A stretch of DNA of 44,271 nucleotides from a virus (lineage: Duplodnaviria > Heunggongvirae > Uroviricota > Caudoviricetes), in the IMG/VR virus record IMGVR_UViG_2565956725_000004; one strand, given 5' to 3'. The notes beneath the pieces were generated by a model. That model ran no database searches. It was not told the origin of the DNA and saw only the letters and a list, made by a program, of their open reading frames with translations. Position numbers and translations under genes: made by a program. Below are positions 386-44,271 of the stretch, piece after piece (position 1 is the first letter of the stretch; each line of letters starts with the position of its first letter).

Positions 386-1600
386 ATGGCGCTGTCTGAT
401 GCGTGGTTGCGTTCAGTCGTTGGAAAGGAACGTGATAAGGTTTTGGTTAAATCCGATCGTGATGGTCTGTCTGTCAGAGTATCACCGAAAGGTCGCGTAG
501 TGTTCCAATATCGTTATCAATGGGCAGGGAAAGGTGAGCGTCTTGATATCGGAACTTACCCGGCAACTGGATTAAAAGAGGCCAGAGAAGAAGTTATTCG
601 TCTCCGTGGTGAACTCGAGTCAAACCGTAATCCACGATTGGTCAAGCAGGCTGAAAAACGAAAAGCTACTGAAGCCATGACGGTAGAGTCTGTGATCCGT
701 GCCTGGTATGAAGCATATTGTGTAAAAAATAAAAAAGGTTCTGAACAGATACTCCGCTCGTTTGAGCTGCACCTGTTCTCTAAAATCGGGAATATCCCTC
801 ACGATGCAGCTACATTGCATGATTGGTTAGAAGTCCTGGAGCCTCTTAGCACTAAGACTCCAGCAATAGCAGACCGATTGCTAATTAACGCAAAGCAGGC
901 CCATGTCTGGGCGTATAAGAGAAAGCTCATTGAAACTCGCCCGCTGTCGGATATCACGGGTAAAGATATGGATATCCGTAAAGGTCAGAAGAAACGGTTT
1001 CTGACACATGATGAAATTAAAATCCTTTATGCTGCGATCGATGGTTCTCGAATGGTTCCTAAATACCGGGCCTTCATTAAACTATTGCTTCATTTTGGTT
1101 GCCGTAGTTCAGAGCTAATTACCGCCAGGGTGGACGATTTTGATTTCATTAATAAAGTATGGACTGTACCACCAGAACGACATAAGACTGGGGAGATAAC
1201 AGGCGAACCGCTAAAGCGGCCCATTATTGAACCGGTTGAAGAGCTTATAAAGTACGCTATTTCTATGAACAATGGTTCCGATATGCTTTTTACTAAGGAA
1301 GGAAGCAGGGAACCCGTTGGTCGGACATCATTGCAGTCGCTGCCTTACAATTTAATGCAGTATGCATGGCGGCGTTTGGGTTATCAATTCCCTCATTGGT
1401 CTCTTCATGATTTGAGGCGAACAGCACGAACAAACTTTTCTGATCTTACTGCGCCTCATATTGCAGAAATTATGCTAGGTCATAAACTGCCAGGGGTATG
1501 GCAAGTTTATGACAAGAGCGATTATCTAGAAGAACAGCGTAAAGCCTACCAAGCGTGGTGGGAGAGGGTTGAATCGATCGTTACTTGTACTGGTTCATAA
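386..1600 (+). CDS. int: Tyrosine recombinase, P4-type phage integrase
   Basis: 404-aa ORF; C-terminal HxLRRT-like motif (LHDLRRTARTN) and terminal Tyr region typical of tyrosine recombinases; sits beside the att junction. Confidence 0.9.
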   Translation: MALSDAWLRSVVGKERDKVLVKSDRDGLSVRVSPKGRVVFQYRYQWAGKGERLDIGTYPATGLKEAREEVIRLRGELESNRNPRLVKQAEKRKATEAMTVESVIRAWYEAYCVKNKKGSEQILRSFELHLFSKIGNIPHDAATLHDWLEVLEPLSTKTPAIADRLLINAKQAHVWAYKRKLIETRPLSDITGKDMDIRKGQKKRFLTHDEIKILYAAIDGSRMVPKYRAFIKLLLHFGCRSSELITARVDDFDFINKVWTVPPERHKTGEITGEPLKRPIIEPVEELIKYAISMNNGSDMLFTKEGSREPVGRTSLQSLPYNLMQYAWRRLGYQFPHWSLHDLRRTARTNFSDLTAPHIAEIMLGHKLPGVWQVYDKSDYLEEQRKAYQAWWERVESIVTCTGS

Positions 1601-1975: not shown

Positions 1976-2992
1976 TCACTTTTGTTTTAGCTTTATAATT
2001 TCTGATATCATAGTTGTTAGCTTTGAATCGGAAAGATTCTGCAGTCTATCTTTCTCAATAGAAACTGTAGTTTGTCCCTTTTCTAATATGAAATTTCTTT
2101 CTGTTTTCATTAAAAGCATTGCCAACTCTTTTATCATGTCTTCGTTCTTGAATTCTTGAGCATATTTTAGAGACATGACTTTCATCTCAATATTTGTGAT
2201 TTCATTCTGAAAATATTTGATTTCGTCAAACCCATTTTTATAGAGGCGTAGAAAAAAATAAGCAAACAATTCAACGACTATTACAAATGATAATTTAGGA
2301 AGGTGATGAATAAAAAATCCCACCCCATCCACAATGTCTGGCGCGCTGTAAAGAAAGTAAGCAAGAGATAATATCCCTGTCAACGCAATTATTGTTCCGA
2401 TTGCAAGGTTAAGCCCACCTCGTCGATTGAGTCTGTCTATTTCAGACTCTAATCTTAGAACCATATCAGTATGGAGTTTATGTAAGCTGTAGCTCTTCTT
2501 AAAATCAGATATATCGCTTTTTAGGCTGTTATCTGCCAGAAGTATTGTGTTTCCAATTATTCTCTTTTTTGCATCGGATATTAACTTCTCCCTTTCACTC
2601 TCTGTTATTTCAATGGAAACTCCGGAAGATGTTCTATTTTCAATTTCGCTCAATTTTTTATTTAGCTTAACTATTTCTTTGTGAAAAATATATCTCGTGT
2701 TTTCAATATCTCTACCACCAATTCCTTTGTTTAAATAAGAAGTCATTATTGCGACAAAAGAACCAACAAAAACTAGGGCAGTTGCTGTAAATAAAATAAA
2801 CTCTTTCTTCTCGTTTATTAAATTTACTATTGATGATGATTCCAGTTGAATGTCTGAAAGCGAAGTTTTAAGCACAAAATTCATCACAGGTGAAACCATG
2901 ATTATGGCAACAACTATAATAAATCCATATTTTTTTATAATGTAAATAAGAAGACCAAATAAATCTTTCATTTTATCTTTTACCTGAAACAA
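1976..2992 (-). CDS. Hypothetical multi-pass membrane protein with coiled-coil segments (moron, possible phage exclusion or abortive-infection protein)
   Basis: 338-aa ORF with about four hydrophobic helices separated by Lys/Glu-rich predicted coiled-coil regions; strongly A+T-rich codon usage unlike flanking phage genes; flanked by A+T-rich non-coding DNA. Confidence 0.6.
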   Translation of the reverse strand: MFQVKDKMKDLFGLLIYIIKKYGFIIVVAIIMVSPVMNFVLKTSLSDIQLESSSIVNLINEKKEFILFTATALVFVGSFVAIMTSYLNKGIGGRDIENTRYIFHKEIVKLNKKLSEIENRTSSGVSIEITESEREKLISDAKKRIIGNTILLADNSLKSDISDFKKSYSLHKLHTDMVLRLESEIDRLNRRGGLNLAIGTIIALTGILSLAYFLYSAPDIVDGVGFFIHHLPKLSFVIVVELFAYFFLRLYKNGFDEIKYFQNEITNIEMKVMSLKYAQEFKNEDMIKELAMLLMKTERNFILEKGQTTVSIEKDRLQNLSDSKLTTMISEIIKLKQK

Positions 2993-15271: not shown

Positions 15272-15295
15272 AGGGGGAATTACCCCCCTTTTTTT
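15272..15295 (+). terminator. Rho-independent terminator immediately after Q
   Basis: AGGGGG-AATTA-CCCCCC hairpin followed by seven T; its reverse complement encodes the last codons and stop of the minus-strand 182-aa ORF. Confidence 0.65.
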
Positions 15296-15828
15296 CTCTG
15301 TTGCTTTAATAAAATTTTAATATTTTGTCTGATTATGATGAGGCAATGTAATAAAAGAAATACCGTTAGTATTGCAAGCCATACGCAAAATAAGCATGCA
15401 TATAAATTAGTTGAAAGTCCAATAGTGAATTGTGCAATTGCTGTTGTGATAGAACATAATATTGATGTATTAATAAATGAGGATAAATTGTCTAAAGGTT
15501 TATAAAGTACACTATCATTGATTTTGTCAATAGGTATACCAGTGGCAATGCTATAAATTTCCTTATATTCCTGAGTTGCAAAAACCTTATCGCGTAAATT
15601 TATTATGACAAAGGTATGCAGGCTCAATAAAAATGAGCCCACGGAAATAAAACCGGAGAAGAGATAGCCTCGTAAGTTTTTATGATAAAAATCAAAAAAG
15701 TTAACACTTACTTTAGGTGTGTTTCTGTACAATAGGTAAAGTGCAAGCAATGCCAGGATCGAGAATGCAAGCAGTGTAAGGTACTGATACCTCAATCTTT
15801 TATTTATTAGCCATTCATATAAAGGCAT
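15280..15828 (-). CDS. Hypothetical 4-TM membrane protein; second gene of the A+T-rich two-gene cassette (candidate effector)
   Basis: 182-aa ORF with about four hydrophobic helices and little soluble sequence; start overlaps the upstream gene by 14 nt; very A+T-rich. Confidence 0.6.
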   Translation of the reverse strand: MPLYEWLINKRLRYQYLTLLAFSILALLALYLLYRNTPKVSVNFFDFYHKNLRGYLFSGFISVGSFLLSLHTFVIINLRDKVFATQEYKEIYSIATGIPIDKINDSVLYKPLDNLSSFINTSILCSITTAIAQFTIGLSTNLYACLFCVWLAILTVFLLLHCLIIIRQNIKILLKQQRKKGG

Positions 15829-16741
15829 TTTTATTCGTCCCGTTCAGCATTTCTTCTTTTATCATATCAAAAACAGGGTTTGTTGTATAATTATCGTTTG
15901 TCAATCCATTGACTTTATCGGCAATTATATCGAAATCGTATGTTTCAAAAAAAACAGGGCAGTTCATAAAATCAATGGTTTTTTCTATTCCTGCATGGTT
16001 TACTGCAATAACCTGTGCTTTAGCAACTCCACTCATAGAATTATAAATATTTGAAAGATTCTGAGATAGTTGTTGCACTTTTGTTCTGTCGCTAGAATTA
16101 AAATTCATATCTATTGTGGTGGTGTTAACAAATTGTTCAAGCGCAGTCATTGGTCCACCTTTAAAATCTATATAATTAAATTTAAAGCTTGTGCTTTTAA
16201 TCTCTTTGAATTGACATAAAACACTCTGAATGTTGTTTTTATTTGTCATAAGGCTGAAAGTCAGTCTTTCTTTGTATTTTTTATTTATTGCAGTTACTTC
16301 TTTTTGTTTTGGTTTATCACCAAGTTTTTTTATTTCTTCTTTATTTTGATTTCTGATAAATTCATTACTTATTGTTTCTAAATGAGAAAAGAGAGTGTTC
16401 AGACTGCATGAACCGTGGTGATACATATAGAGACCAGAAAGATTAGATTTTTTAATTAAGAAAAAGTTGAAATTAGCAAGTTTGTCACTTCCTTGAAGAT
16501 CTTCAATTTTAAGCTGGAATTTACCATCAACAAATTGCGACTTACAGTTCTTTTTTTGGTTTCTGAATGTGACAACTAATCCATAATAGAAATCATTCAC
16601 ATCCGAAATGAGAATTTTACGAGTATAGTCTGTGCGACTGTGTTCTCTGTTTGATGCGTTGATAAAAGCATTCATTACGTCAACGGTATTAATATTTTTG
16701 TTATTGTTATTTATTGTAAATCCTATGCTTCTAACTTTCAT
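15815..16741 (-). CDS. Hypothetical cytoplasmic protein; first gene of the A+T-rich two-gene cassette (candidate sensor or enzyme)
   Basis: 308-aa ORF, Asn/Lys-rich, no hydrophobic helices; a perfect TATAAT lies on the minus strand at 16820..16825 about 80 nt upstream. Confidence 0.6.
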   Translation of the reverse strand: MKVRSIGFTINNNNKNINTVDVMNAFINASNREHSRTDYTRKILISDVNDFYYGLVVTFRNQKKNCKSQFVDGKFQLKIEDLQGSDKLANFNFFLIKKSNLSGLYMYHHGSCSLNTLFSHLETISNEFIRNQNKEEIKKLGDKPKQKEVTAINKKYKERLTFSLMTNKNNIQSVLCQFKEIKSTSFKFNYIDFKGGPMTALEQFVNTTTIDMNFNSSDRTKVQQLSQNLSNIYNSMSGVAKAQVIAVNHAGIEKTIDFMNCPVFFETYDFDIIADKVNGLTNDNYTTNPVFDMIKEEMLNGTNKNAFI

Positions 16742-23592: not shown

Positions 23593-25100
23593 TGGCAATT
23601 CTTGATGATGTGATTGGCGTTTTTTCACCAGGATGGAAAGCGGCAAGGCTGCGTTCCCGTGCGGTGATCCAGGCTTATGAGGCCGTAAAAACGACGCGGA
23701 CACACAAAGCCCGGCGGGAAAACCGAACTGCCGACCAGTTAAGCCAGTACGGGGCCGTGTCGTTACGTGAGCAGGCCCGTTACCTTGATAACAACCACGA
23801 TCTGGTTATTGGTGTATTTGACAAGCTGGAAGAACGGGTGGTGGGGAAAAACGGGATTATTGTCGAGCCACATCCGGTATTACGCAATGGGGCCATTGCC
23901 CGTGACCTGGCTGCGGAGATTCGCACCCGATGGAGTGAATGGTCTGTCAGCCCGGAAGTCACCGGGCAGTTTACCCGTCCGATGCTGGAACGTCTGATGC
24001 TGCGTACCTGGCTGCGCGATGGTGAGGTGTTTGCCCAGATGGTTTCCGGGCGCATAAACAGCCTGACGCCTTCTGCCGGTGTTCATTTCTGGCTGGAGGC
24101 GCTCGAGCCGGACTTTATTCCCATGACCAGTGATGAGAGCAACAGGCTGAATCAGGGCGTGTTTGTTGATGACTGGGGGCGTCCCGAAAAATATCTGGTG
24201 TATAAAAGCCGTCCCGTATCCGGACGGCAGATGGAAACCAAAGAAGTGGATGCAGAGCGAATGCTGCATCTTAAATTTGTTCGCCGTCTGCACCAGATGC
24301 GCGGGACGTCTTTGTTGTCCGGTGTGCTGATCCGCCTCAGTGCCCTGAAAGAGTATGAAGATTCTGAGCTGACTGCAGCAAGGATCGCCGCTGCTCTGGG
24401 GATGTACATCCGCAAAGGCGACGGGCAGAGCTATGAACCGGATGGTAATGGCAGCAAGGATAAGGAACGCGAGCTTACCATTCAGCCAGGCATTATTTAC
24501 GACGATCTGAAACCCGGCGAAGAAATCGGAATGGTGAAGTCGGATCGTCCCAATCCTAACCTTGAAACTTTTCGTAATGGTCAGTTGCGTGCCGTGGCGG
24601 CGGGCAGTCGTCTGAGTTTTTCCAGTACGGCACGCAACTATAACGGTACTTACAGCGCCCAGCGTCAGGAACTGGTTGAGTCTACTGATGGCTACCTGAT
24701 CCTGCAGGACTGGTTTATTGGTGCCGTCACCCGCCCGATGTATCGTGCCTGGCTGAAACAGGCTGTGGCATCCGGTGTTATCAGGCTACCCCGCGATCTT
24801 GACCGTTCTTCACTGTATACCGCGGTGTATTCCGGACCGGTGATGCCGTGGATTGACCCTGTTAAGGAGGCTGAGGCCTGGAAAATCCAGATTCGTGGTG
24901 GAGCGGCGACAGAATCAGACTGGGTACGTGCAGGTGGTCGTAATCCGGATGATGTCAAACGTCGGCGCAAGGCCGAAATTGATGAAAACCGCAAGCTGGA
25001 TCTGGTATTTGATACCGATCCAGCCAGTGATAAAGGAGGCAGCAGTGCCGCAACGAAACGACAGGAGCCGCAGCATACCGACGACCAGTCCGAAGAATAA
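23592..25100 (+). CDS. Portal protein (lambda gpB-like)
   Basis: ATG at 23592 overlaps the gpW stop (TGATG); about 502 aa; position and size. Confidence 0.85.
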   Translation: MAILDDVIGVFSPGWKAARLRSRAVIQAYEAVKTTRTHKARRENRTADQLSQYGAVSLREQARYLDNNHDLVIGVFDKLEERVVGKNGIIVEPHPVLRNGAIARDLAAEIRTRWSEWSVSPEVTGQFTRPMLERLMLRTWLRDGEVFAQMVSGRINSLTPSAGVHFWLEALEPDFIPMTSDESNRLNQGVFVDDWGRPEKYLVYKSRPVSGRQMETKEVDAERMLHLKFVRRLHQMRGTSLLSGVLIRLSALKEYEDSELTAARIAAALGMYIRKGDGQSYEPDGNGSKDKERELTIQPGIIYDDLKPGEEIGMVKSDRPNPNLETFRNGQLRAVAAGSRLSFSSTARNYNGTYSAQRQELVESTDGYLILQDWFIGAVTRPMYRAWLKQAVASGVIRLPRDLDRSSLYTAVYSGPVMPWIDPVKEAEAWKIQIRGGAATESDWVRAGGRNPDDVKRRRKAEIDENRKLDLVFDTDPASDKGGSSAATKRQEPQHTDDQSEE

Positions 25101-25113
25101 TTCCTGGTTCAGG

Positions 25114-27072
25114 ATGCAGGCTGGTCACCAGAGTGACGCGGATATTTATATTTATGACGAGATTGGTTTCTGGGGTGTTACAGCGAAGCAGTTTATCAGT
25201 GATCTGAATGCACTGGGCGATATCACCCACATTAATCTCCATATTAATTCACCGGGTGGCGATGTCTTTGAAGGCATCGCCATTTTTAATGCGCTGAAAA
25301 CACATGGTGCGTCCATTACCGTTTATGTCGACGGTGTGGCGGCGTCAATGGCGTCGGTCATTGCGATGGTGGGAAACCCGGTCATTATGCCGGAAAACAC
25401 CTTCATGATGATTCATAAACCATTTGGCTTTACGGGCGGTGATGCGGAGGACATGCGCACCTATGCCGACCTGCTCGATAAGGTTGAGGCGGTTCTGTTA
25501 CCCGCTTATGCACAGAAAACCGGGAAAACCACCGATGAAATTGCTGCCATGCTGGCGGATGAGACCTGGATGTCCGGTGCCGAATGTCTGGCACATGGAT
25601 TTGCTGATCAGGTAACGCCAGCCGTTAAGGCAATGGCATGTATTCAGTCAAAACGTACAGAGGAATTTAAAAAGATGCCGGAATCCATTCGAAACATGAT
25701 TACTCCGCCACGCAACAGTGCTCCACGCGTACAGGATGATGAACCTGCAGCCTCCCGGACGCCAGTGCAGGCAGCAGCACCCGTGGTGGATGAAAACAGT
25801 ATCCGTGCGCAGGTACTGGCAGAGCAAAAAGCGCGTGTAAACGGTATTAATGATCTGTTTGCCATGTTTGGCGGGCGTTATCAGACGCTGCAGGCTCAGT
25901 GTCTTGCCGATCCTGAATGTTCGCTGGAGCGGGCCCGCGAAAAGCTGTTGAACGAGATGGGGCGCGAGTCCACGCCATCCAATAAAAATACCCCGGCTCA
26001 TATTTATGCCGGTAACGGTAATTTTGTGGGGGACGGGATCCGCCAGGCGCTGATGGCGCGTGCCGGATTTGAAAAAACCGAACGTGATAATGTCTACAAC
26101 GGGATGACCCTGCGTGAATATGCCCGTATGTCACTGACTGAACGGGGTATTGGGGTTTCCAGTTATAACCCGATGCAGATGGTCGGTGCGGCGTTCACAC
26201 ACAGTACGTCTGACTTCGGTAATATTCTGCTGGATGTTGCGAACAAAGCCATTCTGCAGGGCTGGGAAGATGCCCCTGAAACCTATGAACAGTGGACGCG
26301 GAAAGGTCAGTTGTCTGATTTTAAAATTGCCCATCGTGTGGGTATGGGGGGCTTCAGTGCTCTGCGTCAGGTGCGTGAAGGGGCGGAATATAAATACGTC
26401 ACCACCGGAGATAAACAGGCCACTATTGCACTGGCGACCTATGGCGAGCTGTTCAGTATCACCCGTCAGGCCATTATCAATGATGATCTGAATATGCTGA
26501 CCGATGTCCCGATGAAACTGGGCCGTGCGGCGAAATCCACTATTGCCGATCTGGTTTATGCCATTCTGACGTCTAACCCGAAAATCTCCACAGATAATGT
26601 AAGTCTGTTCGATAAAGCGAAACATGCAAACGTACTGGAGAGCGCTGCAATGGACGTGGCATCGCTGGATAAAGCCCGCCAGTTGATGCGCGTTCAGAAA
26701 GAGGGGGAGCGTCATCTGAATATTCGTCCTGCGTTCGTACTGGTACCGACGGCGATGGAGTCTGTTGCTAACCAGGTCATTCGCTCCTCAAGTGTCAAGG
26801 GGGCTGACATTAACGCCGGTATTATTAACCCGGTGAAAGATTTTGCGACCGTTATTGCAGAGCCTCGTCTTGATGATAACAGCCAGACCACCTTCTACCT
26901 GGCTGCGTCAAAAGGCTCCGATACGATTGAAGTGGCTTATCTCAACGGTGTGGATACGCCATATATTGATCAGATGGAGGGCTTCAGTGTGGATGGCGTG
27001 ACAACGAAAGTGCGTATTGACGCCGGTGTCGCGCCAGTTGATCACCGCGGTCTGGTGAAATGTACGGCGTAA
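25114..27072 (+). CDS. Fused prohead protease (ClpP/S49-like), scaffold and HK97-fold major capsid protein
   Basis: N-terminal ClpP-like protease motifs (INSPGGDVFEG, Ser in AASMASV), Ala/Glu-rich middle, C-terminal capsid-like domain; start at ATG 25114. Confidence 0.8.
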   Translation: MQAGHQSDADIYIYDEIGFWGVTAKQFISDLNALGDITHINLHINSPGGDVFEGIAIFNALKTHGASITVYVDGVAASMASVIAMVGNPVIMPENTFMMIHKPFGFTGGDAEDMRTYADLLDKVEAVLLPAYAQKTGKTTDEIAAMLADETWMSGAECLAHGFADQVTPAVKAMACIQSKRTEEFKKMPESIRNMITPPRNSAPRVQDDEPAASRTPVQAAAPVVDENSIRAQVLAEQKARVNGINDLFAMFGGRYQTLQAQCLADPECSLERAREKLLNEMGRESTPSNKNTPAHIYAGNGNFVGDGIRQALMARAGFEKTERDNVYNGMTLREYARMSLTERGIGVSSYNPMQMVGAAFTHSTSDFGNILLDVANKAILQGWEDAPETYEQWTRKGQLSDFKIAHRVGMGGFSALRQVREGAEYKYVTTGDKQATIALATYGELFSITRQAIINDDLNMLTDVPMKLGRAAKSTIADLVYAILTSNPKISTDNVSLFDKAKHANVLESAAMDVASLDKARQLMRVQKEGERHLNIRPAFVLVPTAMESVANQVIRSSSVKGADINAGIINPVKDFATVIAEPRLDDNSQTTFYLAASKGSDTIEVAYLNGVDTPYIDQMEGFSVDGVTTKVRIDAGVAPVDHRGLVKCTA

Positions 27073-35729: not shown

Positions 35730-38700
35730 ATGGGTAAAGGCAGCAGTAAGGGGCATACCCCGCGCGAAGCGAAGGACAACCTGAAGTCCACGCAGTTGCT
35801 GAGTGTGATCGATGCCATCAGCGAAGGGCCGGTTGAAGGTCCGGTGGAGGGATTAAAAAGCGTGCTGCTGAACAGTACGCCGGTGCTGGACACTGAGGGG
35901 AATACCAACATATCCGGTGTCACGGTGGTGTTCCGTGCCGGTGAGCAGGAGCAGACACCGCCGGAGGGGTTTGAATCCTCCGGCTCCGAGACGGTGCTCG
36001 GTACAGAAGTGAAATATGACACGCCGATCACCCGGACCATCACGTCGGCAAACATCGACCGTCTGCGCTTTACCTTCGGTGTACAGGCACTGGTGGAAAC
36101 CACCTCAAAGGGTGACAGGAATCCGTCGGAAGTCCGCCTGCTGGTTCAGATACAGCGTAATGGTGGCTGGGTGACGGAAAAAGACATCACCATTAAAGGC
36201 AAAACCACCTCACAGTATCTGGCATCGGTGGTGGTGGGTAACCTGCCGCCGCGCCCGTTCAATATCCGGATGCGCAGGATGACGCCGGACAGCACCACAG
36301 ACCAGCTGCAGAACAAAACGCTCTGGTCGTCATACACCGAAATCATCGATGTGAAACAGTGCTACCCGAACACGGCACTGGTCGGCGTACAGGTGGATTC
36401 GGAGCAGTTCGGCAGCCAGCAGGTGAGCCGTAATTATCATCTGCGCGGGCGTATTCTGCAGGTGCCGTCGAACTATAACCCGCAGATGCGGCAATACAGC
36501 GGTATCTGGGACGGAACGTTTAAGCCAGCATACAGCAATAACATGGCCTGGTGTCTGTGGGATATGCTGACCCATCCACGCTACGGCATGGGGAAACGTC
36601 TTGGTGCGGCGGATGTGGACAAATGGGCGCTGTATGTCATCGGCCAGTACTGCGACCAGTCAGTGCCGGACGGCTTTGGCGGCACGGAGCCGCGCATCAC
36701 CTGTAATGCGTACCTGACCACACAGCGCAAGGCGTGGGATGTGCTCAGTGATTTCTGCTCGGCGATGCGCTGTATGCCGGTATGGAACGGGCAGACGCTG
36801 ACGTTCGTGCAGGACCGACCGTCGGATAAGGTGTGGACCTATAACCGCAGTAATGTGGTGATGCCGGATGATGGCGCGCCGTTCCGCTACAGCTTCAGCG
36901 CCCTGAAAGACCGCCATAATGCCGTTGAGGTGAACTGGATTGACCCGAACAACGGCTGGGAGACGGCGACAGAGCTTGTGGAGGATACGCAGGCCATTGC
37001 CCGTTACGGTCGTAACGTCACGAAGATGGATGCTTTTGGCTGTACCAGCCGGGGGCAGGCACACCGCGCCGGGCTGTGGCTGATTAAAACAGAACTGCTG
37101 GAAACGCAGACCGTGGACTTCAGCGTGGGTGCAGAAGGGCTTCGCCATGTACCGGGCGATGTCATTGAAATCTGTGATGATGACTATGCGGGGATCAGCA
37201 TCGGCGGGCGCGTGCTGGCGGTGAACAACCAGACGCGGACACTGACGCTCGACCGTGAAATCACGCTGCCATCCTCCGGCACCACGCTGATAAGCCTGGC
37301 TGACGGACAGGGGAATCCGGTCAGCGTGGAGGTCCAGTCCGTCACCGACGGCGTGAAGGTAAAAGTGAGCCGTGTTCCTGACGGCGTTGCAGAATACAGC
37401 GTGTGGGGGCTGAAGTTGCCAACGTTGCGCCAGCGCCTGTTCCGCTGTGTGAGTATCCGTGAGAACGATGACGGCACGTATGCCATCACTGCCGTGCAGC
37501 ATGTACCGGAAAAAGAGGCCATCGTGGATAACGGGGCGCACTTTGACGGCGACCAGAGCGGAACGGTAAACGGTGTCACGCCGCCAGCGGTGCAGCACCT
37601 GACCGCAGAAGTCACCGCAGACAGCGGGGAATACCAGGTGCTGGCGCGCTGGGACACACCGAAGGTGGTGAAGGGGGTGAGCTTCCTGCTTCGCCTGACC
37701 GTAACAGCGGACGACGGCAGTGAGCGGCTGGTCAGCACGGCCCGGACGACGGAAACCACATACCGCTTCAGGCAACTGGCGCTGGGGCGTTACACGCTGA
37801 CGGTCCGGGCGGTAAATGCGTGGGGACAGCAGGGCGATCCGGCATCGGTATCGTTCCGGATTGCCGCACCGGCAGCGCCGTCGCGGATTGAGCTGACGCC
37901 GGGCTATTTTCAGATAACCGCCACGCCGCATCTTGCGGTTTATGATCCGACGGTACAGTTTGAGTTCTGGTTCTCGGAAAAGCGGATTGCGGATATCAGG
38001 CAGGTTGAAACCACAGCCCGCTATCTTGGCACGGCGCTGTACTGGATAGCCGCCAGTATCAATATCAAACCGGGCCATGATTATTATTTTTACGTTCGCA
38101 GTGTGAACACCGTCGGCAAATCGACATTCGTGGAGGCTGTCGGTCAGCCGAGTGATGACGCATCCGGCTATCTGGATTTTTTCAAAGGAGAGATAGGAAA
38201 AACACACCTGGCTCAGGAGTTGTGGACGCAGATTGATAACGGTCAGCTTGCGCCTGACCTGGCTGAAATCAGGACATCCATTACGGGTGTCAGCAATGAA
38301 ATCACGCAGACCGTCAATAAGAAACTGGAAGACCAGAGTGCAGCGATCCAGCAGATACAGAAGGTTCAGGTTGATACAAATAATAACCTGAACAGCATGT
38401 GGGCTGTGAAGCTGCAGCAGATGCAGGACGGACGCCTTTATATCGCGGGTATCGGTGCCGGTATTGAGAACACCCCCGACGGTATGCAGAGTCAGGTGCT
38501 GCTGGCGGCAGACAGGATTGCGATGATTAATCCTGCGAATGGCAACACAAAGCCGATGTTTGTTGGGCAGGGCGATCAGATATTCATGAACGAAGTGTTC
38601 CTGAAATATCTGACGGCTCCCACCATTACCAGCGGTGGCAATCCCCCAACGTTTTCACTGACACCTGACGGGCGACTGACGGCGAAAAATGCGGATATCA

Positions 38701-39212
38701 GCGGTAACGTGAACGCGAACTCCGGGACGCTCAACAACGTCACGATTAATCAGAACTGTCGGATTCTGGGAAAACTGTCAGCTAACCAGATTGAAGGTGA
38801 TATTGTCAAAACGGTGGGAAAAGCCTTTCCGAGAAATGGCAGTTATGCCAGCGGTACAATAACGGTCACTGTGTACGATGACCAGGCTTTTGACCGTCAG
38901 ATAGTAATCCCCCCCGTTCTGTTTCGCGGTGGTAAGCATGAAAACTTCAACAGCAACAACCAACAGTCATACTGGTATTCAACCTGTAAGCTGCAGGTGC
39001 TGAAGAACGGACAGGAAATCTTTCAGCAACCCGCGACGGATGTCAGCAGGGTATTTTCATCAGTCATTGATATGCCTGCCGGACACGGCCATGTCACCCT
39101 GACTTTCAATGTTTCTTCATATGGTGCTAATAACTGGACGCCAACGACCAGTATCAGCGACCTTCTTGTTGTTGTGATGAAGAAATCTACAGCTGGTATC
39201 AGTATCAGTTGA
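35730..39212 (+). CDS. J: Host specificity / central tail fibre protein J
   Basis: 1160-aa ORF, N-terminal and central regions lambda-J-like; C-terminal receptor-binding region not compared. Confidence 0.95.
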
Positions 39213-41618: not shown

Positions 41619-41912
41619 ATGGATATAAGCCCCTTACTTCATGCACTTTGTGCTGTGGCTGCGCAGATACTGGTTGGTCTTTTTACCGGAAACTGGGCTT
41701 ACGGAGCGATAGCCGGTTGTACGTTCTTCATTGCGCGTGAACATACCCAGGCAGAATATCGCTGGATTGAAATGTTCGGGCATGGCAAGCGAATGAATAT
41801 GCCGTGGTGGGGTGGTTTTGATCCGCGTGCTTGGGATGTGGCAAGCCTGATGGATTTTGCTGTGCCGGTGGTGGCGTGTCTGCTGGTCTGGGTATTTATC
41901 CGTTCAACATAA
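41619..41912 (+). CDS. Hypothetical small inner-membrane protein
   Basis: 97-aa ORF with strong AAAGGAGG ribosome-binding site; hydrophobic helices at both ends. Confidence 0.55.
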   Translation: MDISPLLHALCAVAAQILVGLFTGNWAYGAIAGCTFFIAREHTQAEYRWIEMFGHGKRMNMPWWGGFDPRAWDVASLMDFAVPVVACLLVWVFIRST

Positions 41913-42253
41913 AAAGTCGCAGCAACTTGTCATGGCGGAATACTGCGGCTTGCTGGCGAACCTTTGATAGTTCGGGTATTGAATAATTTCCAGCCATTAC
42001 TGATTTTATGTATTTTTTGCATGAGAGGATTTGCTCCTCCTTACACCGAGCTTACATGATTACACGCTACTGTTTTAGGTGTGCTATGTGCCAGAAGTAG
42101 ACATAGTTTTATCTTACTTTATGTACAATAAGCTAAGAACTTACTTGCGCACTATTTCTGTTAGGTAGTATGAAAAAAATGGGAGTATATTCAATTAGGT
42201 ATAAACAGGAGTTTCTGATGCATCAGACATATCTTGGATAATTGGATGTTGAT

Positions 42254-42280
42254 TGATCAGGGTTGCAGCAACCCTGATCA
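42254..42280. repeat. Near-perfect 27-bp palindrome (13-bp arms, 1-nt centre) downstream of the OLD-family gene
   Basis: TGATCAGGGTTGC-A-GCAACCCTGATCA; a second perfect 14-bp palindrome TCTGATGCATCAGA lies at 42214..42227. Confidence 0.5.
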
Positions 42281-42387
42281 GAAATTTCATATTGCTAAAT
42301 TTAACTCTTATTAATTAATGGAACCATATCACTAATATCCAATATAATTGTAACTTTAAAAGTTACGATAATATAGATTTTAAATTT

Positions 42388-44271
42388 TTACTCCTGAATT
42401 CCTGGTAATACTTCCGGTATAATGGTAATTGGGTTTTGGGATGGGGAGATTTCAAATGGGAAAGTCGTACGCTCAAACAATGGTGAGACTATATCAACTT
42501 TAAGCTTAAGCTGTTGCTCAGTAGATTTATTCGTTAATTTGAATACTGTTGCATCAACCCCGATGGTAGATCTAGCTAGTGTATCAAGTTCTTGATCGCT
42601 ACTGTTCAATGTCATTTCAAGCATCACTGGTGTCAACATAGCACCGAGCTTCATACGAAGGAGACGATCTTCATCGACAAACTGATTTGGAGCCGTATGA
42701 TTTAAGGCATCATAAATATCATTATAACACATTGCAAGTTCTTTCTGAGTTTTAGCATCAAATCCAGCAGCTTCTAGTGCAGCACGATCTGGTTTTCCAG
42801 TTCCAATTTCTTCTATCGTCCCGTAATAGTTTTCAATTGCTCCTCGACGTAAAAAAAAGCACCCAAGATTACTTAATGCCTTCAAAAGCACATTGTATTT
42901 TCTACAAAGACTTTCGGCTCGAGAAGATGCTTCTGTACCAAAGCTTGTTGGATCAGTAAGAATACGAGCTAACGTCACGCGACGTTTGCTATCAGCCCCA
43001 GAATCTTTACTTGACCAATTAGGATAACTTTCAGCTGCTATCTCAACCTCTTCCTTAAAGTCAGTCATGAAGGTTGTAATTTCTGCACGCAAATCTCTGT
43101 CAAGATCAGCGAGACTTGTTCTTCCGACTTGGTCTGCAATCGCCCTAGCTTCTGTTAATCCACTGAAATAGTTGACTAAATTATTATCGTCAGCTAAGGC
43201 GTCGAGATCTGCAAGCAAACTAACTCGTTTATTCATCAAGCGAAACAGTTTGGCAGCTTCGATAAACTCTCCCTTACCAGTAACTGGAAGTATCTGAGCA
43301 TTACGTGCAAGGAGACGGAGACCGAACTTTCTTGCAAGTTGTGTTACTATTATTTCATCACTAGGACCTTCGACTAATAAAACATGCTCAGCGAACATAG
43401 CTGTTCGATGGGTAGCGCTAAGGCGTGCTATTAATGCGGCCAGTTTTGTGCTGCAAAGAATATCTGCATTTTTTGGTATCTGAACTGGAGGTTGCTGTGC
43501 GGAGTTGAAAAAGATTATTTTTGATAACTCTTCAATTCGTCGCAGCGGTAGTATTGAAGGTGAATGTGTCGCTATGATTATCATTTTTTTCTTTGGATTT
43601 TGAGGATCACCGGCTACCAGTTCCATCTCTTCGAGCAGAAATGCTTGATGCTGTGGGTGTAGGGAGATTTCTGGCTCATCGATAATCAATGCACCTATTT
43701 CGTCATTATGAATTGCAGTTAGTAACGAGACAACCTGCAGTATACCGCTGGCTTCGTGATTAGCTGCGTAGCCATCGCCGCCAGTGACGGATGTTATTCT
43801 AATAGTCATTCCATTTTGAGACCACTTGAGCTCAACGCTTCGATCAAACAACTGCTGTAGGCGTGCTTCAATCTTTAGTTTGAGGTCTGGTCTCTGGTCT
43901 AAGATCATTAAGTCACCAGTAACACTTTCATAATTCCACCATTGCTCAACGTAACTCGCGTTTCCAATAGCAGCATCGCTAGAATTGATGCCATAAGGAG
44001 AATCTGAGCTAGATCTATAGGATTCAAATGGACTACACCGTCCTGCCGAAAGAAAATGTACTTTTCTATTTTGTCCAATTATTCGGTTTTCACTCAATAA
44101 TTTTGATTTTATTGCACGCAGTGCTCGGGTTTTACCACTACCATTTGGCCCGACCATCGTTGTAATACCTGGTCCGACTTGTATTATCGCTTTTGTGGAT
44201 GAATTATCGACTAATGAATATTCAACGTCCATCGGCCACATAAGGTCTTGATCTGCAGTATCTAAGCTCAT
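42388..44271 (-). CDS. OLD-family nuclease (N-terminal ABC-type ATPase, C-terminal Toprim domain); N-terminus at window edge
   Basis: Walker A GPNGSGKT, Walker B ALIIDEPEISLHP, ATHSP, then Toprim-like LLVEGPSDE and DLDALADD; A+T-rich codon usage; the ORF reaches the last base of the window, so the true start is unconfirmed. Confidence 0.8.
   Translation of the reverse strand: MSLDTADQDLMWPMDVEYSLVDNSSTKAIIQVGPGITTMVGPNGSGKTRALRAIKSKLLSENRIIGQNRKVHFLSAGRCSPFESYRSSSDSPYGINSSDAAIGNASYVEQWWNYESVTGDLMILDQRPDLKLKIEARLQQLFDRSVELKWSQNGMTIRITSVTGGDGYAANHEASGILQVVSLLTAIHNDEIGALIIDEPEISLHPQHQAFLLEEMELVAGDPQNPKKKMIIIATHSPSILPLRRIEELSKIIFFNSAQQPPVQIPKNADILCSTKLAALIARLSATHRTAMFAEHVLLVEGPSDEIIVTQLARKFGLRLLARNAQILPVTGKGEFIEAAKLFRLMNKRVSLLADLDALADDNNLVNYFSGLTEARAIADQVGRTSLADLDRDLRAEITTFMTDFKEEVEIAAESYPNWSSKDSGADSKRRVTLARILTDPTSFGTEASSRAESLCRKYNVLLKALSNLGCFFLRRGAIENYYGTIEEIGTGKPDRAALEAAGFDAKTQKELAMCYNDIYDALNHTAPNQFVDEDRLLRMKLGAMLTPVMLEMTLNSSDQELDTLARSTIGVDATVFKLTNKSTEQQLKLKVDIVSPLFERTTFPFEISPSQNPITIIPEVLPGIQE

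Follow-up and report, generated by a model that had tools for sequence, protein, structure and literature searches.

The 44,271-nucleotide stretch of DNA analysed here (IMG/VR virus record IMGVR_UViG_2565956725_000004, hereafter the window) is almost an entire lambda-like prophage, integrated between yjjG and prfC in the Escherichia coli chromosome. The last gene of the window encodes a 627-residue protein of the OLD family, in which an ABC-type ATPase and a Toprim nuclease are fused. Our analysis suggests, with reasonable though far from complete confidence, that this protein is a functional single-gene OLD nuclease carried by the prophage as lysogenic-conversion cargo. By analogy with characterised relatives, it is probably an abortive-infection nuclease that blocks competing phages. 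The generic family assignment is already present in RefSeq, and an OLD nuclease in a prophage is by itself unsurprising. What is new is that the protein belongs to an architecturally distinct subfamily of single-gene OLD proteins.

The OLD gene is a single unbroken open reading frame (ORF) of 627 codons (the coordinates of all features are collected in Table 1), and RefSeq annotates exactly this ORF as an 'ATP-dependent nuclease'. The ATG lies at the last base of the window. RefSeq places the start there too, an AAGGA precedes it in identical genomes and the homologues share its position, so the gene can be regarded as complete within the window. The original prediction, made from the letters and their ORFs, had described an ABC-type ATPase head followed by a C-terminal Toprim signature, and direct reading of the translation finds all the motifs that it quoted in their places: Walker A GPNGSGKT (residues 41–48), Walker B IDEPE (197–201), H-loop ATHSP (234–238), and the Toprim motifs LLVEGPSDE (298–306) and DLDALADD (355–362). 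Pfam recovers AAA_21 (1.2e-16), AAA_15 (2.4e-13) and, over residues 292–357, PF20469 OLD-like_TOPRIM (2e-13; 51 bits vs a cut-off of 23.2). These scores, together with 531 word-indexed homologues across the Proteobacteria and a low ratio of non-synonymous to synonymous substitution rates (dN/dS) relative to the Enterobacter asburiae copy (0.17 overall, 0.03 in the Toprim core), argue that the motifs do not occur by chance. In the same comparison, purifying selection is seen along the whole length of the gene. A broken copy exists in E. coli HB37 (NZ_CP053080.1, 4386874–4389244), one of 28 E. coli carriers, where a one-base deletion splits the gene into an 'AAA family ATPase' and a 'TOPRIM domain' ORF; this is either a natural inactivation or else a sequencing error.

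Sequence profile, predicted fold and residue conservation all support membership of the OLD family, in line with the original prediction. The structure was modelled with AlphaFold2 from 54 diverse relatives (predicted local distance difference test, pLDDT, 93.2; an earlier model from 26 close homologues reached 75.7). The N-terminal ABC-type ATPase contains the Walker A lysine K47 (motif codons at 44128–44151), a signature-like E173-A-S-G176, the Walker B pair D198/E199 (43669–43680) and the H-loop H236. An OLD-type Toprim domain follows, with the core acids E301 (43369–43371), D305, D355-x-D357 (43201–43209) and D361. Among the 54 relatives, K47, D198, E201, E301, D357, G477 and E480 are invariant, and D305, D355, H236 and K493 are at least 90% conserved. 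When aligned by HMMER to Thermus scotoductus OLD (PDB 6P74), E301 falls on E377, D305 on D381, and D355 and D357 on D431 and D433, and both proteins place DxD 54 residues after the Toprim Glu. In Thermus OLD, metal A is bound by E377, D431 and D433 and metal B by D381, S478 and E480 (PMC7049728). Alignment and motif similarity suggest that the two-metal ligands are kept here, with E301, D355 and D357 predicted to hold metal A and D305 and E480 metal B, next to K493 as a candidate for the nearby Lys/Arg of such sites. The catalytic acids are thus retained and an OLD-type Toprim fold is predicted, the two points on which the original prediction had made the Toprim assignment depend.

The nearest solved relatives are a Class 1 and a Class 2 OLD. 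Among solved chains, the best profile match is the Class 1 OLD of Thermus (3e-28), followed by GajA (2e-17), and hhalign also matches P2 Old (E 5e-10). Comparison of the predicted fold gave values of 16.4 and 368 with GajA, 16.3 and 324 with Thermus OLD, and 13.8 and 151 (2.6 Å) with the Toprim region of Burkholderia OLD.

OLD proteins are classified by neighbourhood: Class 1 genes stand alone, Class 2 genes accompany a UvrD-like helicase (Gabija), Class 3 belongs to retrons, Class 4 is split into AriA and AriB, Class 5 is the archaeal Cran1, and 11 further OLD clades are uncharacterised (PMC10568477; PMC12796447). We compared ten genomic contexts of the subfamily, including the E. coli prophage, islets of E. 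asburiae and Citrobacter, an integrative and conjugative element (ICE) of Aeromonas, Achromobacter, a Burkholderia prophage, plasmids of Acinetobacter and Synechocystis, and the context of a 28%-identical member. No neighbouring gene is conserved across these ten contexts; within 5–7 kb of the OLD gene, none of them has a UvrD-like helicase or a separate Toprim gene, and no partner reverse transcriptase recurs. Because the gene stands alone and lacks a conserved neighbour, it is a Class 1 (single-gene) OLD by context.

The original prediction had noted that the window holds no partner gene, and had advised looking beyond position 44271. Downstream of the gene, 475 nucleotides (nt) of non-coding DNA are followed by prophage genes. 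Past the window end, in strain Combat2C1, lie 217 nt of non-coding DNA, a divergent ORF of 75 amino acids (aa), a dinI-like gene and the host prfC; no helicase, reverse transcriptase or second nuclease was found there in the identical E. coli genomes. The 75-aa ORF was considered as a partner and rejected, since it has no Pfam or PADLOC match and lies outside the DNA shared with E. asburiae.

The multi-gene classes fit poorly in other respects as well. The GajB/UvrD-like helicase gene that accompanies Class 2 GajA (PDB 8U7I, 8SM3) and Burkholderia pseudomallei OLD (C-terminal region, PDB 6NK8) appears in none of our contexts; unlike the Class 2 proteins, the ATPase head has no insertion, and the profile match to GajA is the weaker one. 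In contrast to Class 3 systems, which combine a reverse transcriptase with an msr/msd non-coding RNA, the E. coli locus has no reverse-transcriptase gene; Rfam finds no retron or other RNA family, only a sub-threshold small RNA match elsewhere, and the NCBIfam model of the retron Eco8 effector scores 37.8 bits vs a cut-off of 250. Unlike the separate AriA and AriB genes of PARIS (Class 4), both domains are fused in one ORF here, and AriA models match only residues 105–241 of the ATPase part. Identification as a Gabija, PARIS or retron effector was therefore rejected. We also rejected membership of the Vibrio Vc OLD clade, as Vc OLD has a long ATPase insert between K48 and D313. Motif searches of part of the Cran1 dataset (clades U1–U11, with incomplete sequences) revealed no member of the subfamily.

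Although Class 1 by context, the protein differs in build from every characterised single-gene OLD. It shares with these proteins (Thermus scotoductus OLD, P2 Old, Vc OLD and YbjD) the stand-alone gene, the Glu-to-DxD spacing (54 residues here, 53–55 in the others) and the acids of metals A and B, and with P2 old it also shares the status of prophage cargo forming its own transcription unit. The sequence similarity is limited to the stretch between Walker B and DxD. The ATPase is about 100 residues shorter than in characterised OLDs, at the position of the dimerisation insert: 151 residues separate the Walker A Lys from the Walker B Asp, compared with 262 in P2 Old, 258 in YbjD, 242 in Thermus OLD (K34, E276; PMC7049728) and 265 in Vibrio OLD (K48, D313; PMC12392090). 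In the predicted model, residues 80–142 form only short helices where the other proteins have a four-helix dimerisation domain, and the Pfam AAA_21 match omits the profile positions below 220. The helical dimerisation insert, which forms the dimer of Thermus OLD and locks the tetramer of P2 OLD, is thus predicted to be absent or vestigial.

The Toprim half departs from the other Class 1 OLDs in the opposite direction. The protein continues for 270 residues after DxD, compared with 92–131 in other OLDs (92 in Thermus OLD). According to the model, part of this excess is a 105-residue helical insertion between the DxD strand and the last Toprim strand, so that 123 residues separate DxD from the (S/T)xE-type Glu vs 45 in Thermus OLD (PMC7049728). 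This glutamate, E480 (codon 42832–42834), lies in the sequence RRGAIENYY, where the family consensus is RKGTIExYY; by motif comparison, the consensus would correspond to the (S/T)xE metal-B motif of Thermus and Burkholderia OLD (PMC7049728). A further 135 residues or so, predicted to form helices and a small sheet, follow K493. Beyond about residue 390 the sequence matches no solved chain, the C-terminal part falls outside all Pfam families, and the best full-length matches to solved OLD structures leave about 260 of the 627 residues unpaired. The domain is therefore not the compact Toprim of Thermus OLD, which has neither the helical insertion nor the C-terminal helical domain.

Both traits, the short ATPase and the long region after DxD, are also found in plasmid-borne relatives at 33% identity. 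It is conceivable, although we propose it only tentatively and would sooner expect part of it to fail, that the subfamily (about 170 clusters at 50% identity) represents a distinct and so far unnamed class of single-gene OLDs. Such a class would have lost the ATPase dimerisation insert and moved assembly, auto-inhibition and trigger sensing to the 270-residue C-terminal module, and it would respond to a different cue, and perhaps act on a different substrate, than the OLDs of P2, Vibrio and Thermus.

The subfamily is widespread and its distribution is patchy. Of 5426 complete E. coli genomes, 28 contain DNA 100% identical to positions 41900..44271. Twenty-five full-length homologues that we aligned are 59–85% identical to the protein and come from Enterobacter, Citrobacter, Aeromonas, Achromobacter, Burkholderia, Rhizobium, Methylobacterium and acetic acid bacteria. 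When 1.84 billion cluster representatives were searched exhaustively with HMMER, 169 matched at E<=1e-30; most of these are 600–640 aa long and align over their full length at identities as low as about 27%. The carriers are prophages, plasmids, ICEs and islets, from Proteobacteria to cyanobacteria, with plasmid-borne members in Synechocystis, Acinetobacter and Vibrio. Full-length members also occur on four IMG/VR proviral contigs, in one case just past the tail genes and on the opposite strand, and DNA and protein searches found no GenBank phage record with the OLD gene. In an Aeromonas hydrophila ICE, a 70%-identical homologue adjoins two reverse-transcriptase genes, a Fic protein and a ptaRNA1-type toxin; this neighbourhood resembles a defence island, unlike those of the solitary enterobacterial copies.

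Several observations support the view, already expressed in the original prediction, that the gene is imported cargo of the right arm of the prophage. The prophage genes are arranged in the order integrase, early genes, Q, lysis, terminase, head, tail, J, side tail fibre and two small ORFs, followed on the opposite strand by the OLD gene, which lies between the tail-fibre gene and the presumed attR. Its G+C content is 40–43%, falling to about 33–35% at the 3' end, vs 56–63% in the tail genes, so that the A+T richness noticed earlier holds. When compared by blastn with the 85%-identical gene of E. asburiae, which occupies an unrelated chromosomal site, homology extends from 42088 to 124 nt beyond the window. 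This defines a cassette of about 2.3 kb, consisting of a 124-nt 5' leader, the OLD gene and 300 nt of 3' DNA. Low G+C content, a cassette held in common with E. asburiae at another site and the position between tail fibre and attR together support the status of the gene as cargo.

The 475-nt gap downstream of the gene (41913..42387) had been described as non-coding with two palindromes, and indeed contains no ORF of at least 40 aa wholly inside it. One palindrome (42342–42374) is A+T-rich and the other (42254–42280) has perfect 13-bp arms. We can now divide this gap into the 3' tail of the cassette (42088–42387) and prophage backbone (41913–42087). The 3' tail is 66% identical to the E. asburiae copy, compared with 73% at four-fold degenerate sites, so it appears to evolve neutrally; it matches no Rfam family and contains no canonical terminator. 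The 13-bp palindrome is retained in Citrobacter as a hairpin of different sequence and is probably an ordinary transcript-end hairpin. The small ORFs of the gap are not conserved. We rejected the idea that the gap holds a conserved RNA or a conserved small protein, given the neutral rate, the unconserved ORFs and the lack of an Rfam family.

The junction between cassette and backbone recurs elsewhere. Part of the backbone (41945–42048) has short matches of 80–88% identity in 35 other E. coli genomes. This segment of about 100 nt, directly left of the OLD cassette, is 84–88% identical in e14-like prophages of other E. coli. In FORC_031 and WS0115A it follows tail-fibre, tfa and pinE genes, and avs2 (AVAST) is found some 400 nt further on. 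As the same junction sequence flanks different defence genes, OLD here and avs2 elsewhere, these data suggest that the tail-fibre/att end is a shared swap site for prophage defence cargo.

The position of the gene is reminiscent of the b region of phage lambda, where ea59 and ea31 (lambda 24509–26973) also follow the side tail-fibre genes, are read leftward and lie just before att. Lambda Ea59, an ABC-type ATPase, resembles our protein in the Walker B/H-loop region (hhalign 1.5e-6), and its gene is followed by the nuclease gene ea31. In lambda, however, ATPase and nuclease are encoded by two genes, and the nuclease is of the HNH and not the Toprim type. Homology with Ea59 over the whole length was rejected, since the match covers only some 60 residues around Walker B and Ea59 lacks a Toprim domain.

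A mode of action can be sketched from the characterised OLDs. P2 OLD, in which both domains are needed in vivo (PMC7049728), is a tRNase that its dimerisation region keeps inactive as a tetramer and that DNA structures trigger (PMC12445682; bioRxiv 10.64898/2026.07.10.737580), and Vibrio OLD is a single-gene abortive nickase (PMC12392090). By analogy, the protein might idle in the lysogen as an auto-inhibited oligomer. Upon infection by another phage, the ATPase head would respond to some signal, an abnormal DNA structure or a phage protein being most likely; binding or hydrolysis of ATP would then open the Toprim site, and the opened nuclease would cut nucleic acid, stopping the infection at the cost of the cell by abortive infection or exclusion. 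Without the lock element of P2 OLD, the protein could rely for self-association and auto-inhibition on the family-specific region after DxD, this being the most tentative step of the scheme. Our best guess for the substrate is DNA, whose nicking or cleavage would block replication; it is weakly favoured because Thermus OLD and GajA, the nearest solved relatives, are DNA nucleases.

Several points weigh against a functional defence nuclease of this kind. The Ser/Thr position of the metal-B site, a Ser in the (S/T)xE motif of other Class 1 OLDs, is Ala478 in the E. coli clade, and E480 and K493 are candidate counterparts of Thermus E480 and R487 by motif similarity alone. No PADLOC model matches over the full length: the best hit is a partial match to GajA (5e-22), and the matches span the stretch from Walker B to DxD. 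Because all matches are partial, the subfamily would lie outside the families modelled in the 2023 release of PADLOC. Several relatives of our protein are found among housekeeping genes, outside defence islands. Nor does every OLD protein defend by means of its nuclease: the E. coli protein YbjD works without need for its Toprim domain (PMC13261556), and archaeal Cran1 functions in the cell cycle (PMC12796447). Finally, P2 OLD cuts DNA in vitro and its real target is tRNA (PMC12445682; bioRxiv 10.64898/2026.07.10.737580); as in vitro DNA cleavage proved misleading in that case, DNA is a weak choice of substrate.

The last point leads to an alternative in which the gene would still be a single-gene defence system, with an effector that cuts host tRNA in the anticodon stem or loop and arrests translation instead of cutting DNA. 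We regard this as rather unlikely, yet as the most serious of the alternatives. P2 OLD, the archetypal prophage-borne single-gene OLD, acts in this way in vivo, AriB is described as a Toprim tRNase (PMC12409363), and our protein has the same Toprim catalytic set and a significant hhalign match to P2 Old. On the other hand, its profile and fold are nearer to the DNA nucleases Thermus OLD and GajA than to P2 OLD or AriA/AriB, no AriB model is among the top PADLOC matches, and a tRNA-binding surface is not identifiable from the sequence. A role outside defence appears improbable. The gene could be a selfish maintenance or addiction module acting by post-segregational killing, or a DNA-processing or repair enzyme with a Cran1-like role in chromatin or the cell cycle; the Acinetobacter members, which reside on small plasmids among toxin-antitoxin genes, would fit such a role, as would the solitary members among housekeeping genes, the existence of one OLD clade with a non-defence role and the absence of the subfamily from defence-model libraries. 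The patchy, horizontally transferred distribution (few E. coli genomes, low G+C content, close homologues in distant Proteobacteria) is nevertheless the opposite of the vertical inheritance of Cran1. The recurrence at prophage ends, the insertion point shared with avs2 and the lack of a conserved antitoxin-like partner also argue for defence. It is very improbable that the gene is an orphaned component of a multi-gene system (GajA without GajB, PARIS or a retron effector), inactive or partly functional: none of the partner genes occurs near the members examined, the retron models and Rfam gave no support, and the matches to GajA and AriA stop at the Walker B–DxD stretch. A decaying orphan would not be expected to show purifying selection over its whole length and a full architecture conserved down to about 27% identity. 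A functional single-gene OLD nuclease carried as prophage cargo thus remains our preferred reading.

Within the family that also supplies the effectors of Gabija, PARIS and retrons, the single-gene OLDs are understood least. To our knowledge, protection against phages has been reported for three of them only (P2, Vibrio and YbjD), and these differ in substrate and trigger. The present gene adds a compact and naturally prophage-borne OLD in a uropathogenic E. coli lineage. As it lacks the dimerisation insert, in which recent work on P2 OLD sees the auto-inhibitory lock, it also offers a natural experiment on the coupling between sensing by the ATPase and cleavage by Toprim. Further cargo may usefully be sought at the tail-fibre/att end of lambdoid and e14-like prophages. 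Should the protein turn out to be inactive or ordinary, little would be lost, as the family assignment already stands in RefSeq.

Table 1. Coordinates of the OLD gene, its parts and neighbouring features in the window.
Feature	Position	Strand	Basis
Coding sequence of the OLD-family ATPase-Toprim nuclease, complete, stop codon included	42388..44271	-	WP_000050924.1
ABC-type ATPase head, residues 1-290	43402..44271	-	motifs invariant or nearly so among relatives
Toprim core strands 1-3, residues 291-363	43183..43401	-	PF20469, Thermus OLD alignment, conservation
Predicted helical insertion in Toprim, residues 364-468, between DxD strand and last strand	42868..43182	-	model of pLDDT 93
Last Toprim strand, RRGAIENYY, predicted C-terminal helical domain (493-627) with small beta-sheet, stop	42388..42867	-	conservation and model
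Cassette 3' non-coding tail with two palindromes	42088..42387	-	homology to E. asburiae copy
Prophage backbone at cassette junction	41913..42087	not assigned	short matches in other E. coli prophages
Integrase	386-1600		
J	35730-39212		
Side tail fibre, 688 aa	39265-41331		

Other parts of the prophage deserve brief mention. The side tail-fibre gene is one intact ORF with a GTG start, which encodes a phage_tail_N domain and a Laminin_G_3-like C-terminus; RefSeq splits the same DNA into an N-terminal pseudogene fragment and a separate 'head spike fiber' gene. At the opposite end, a 69-nt 'partial hypothetical protein' is annotated between yjjG and the integrase gene, just left of window position 386. 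It may be the 5' end of prfC duplicated by integration (attL), in which case attR may lie between the dinI-like gene and prfC. Two overlapping antisense ORFs of 182 and 308 aa (15280–16741, minus strand), located between the genes for the Q antiterminator and the holin, have no Pfam or PADLOC match and form a second unexplained cargo locus of the same prophage. A 338-aa ORF beside the integrase gene (1976–2992, minus strand), likewise without a Pfam or PADLOC match, is annotated in RefSeq as hypothetical.

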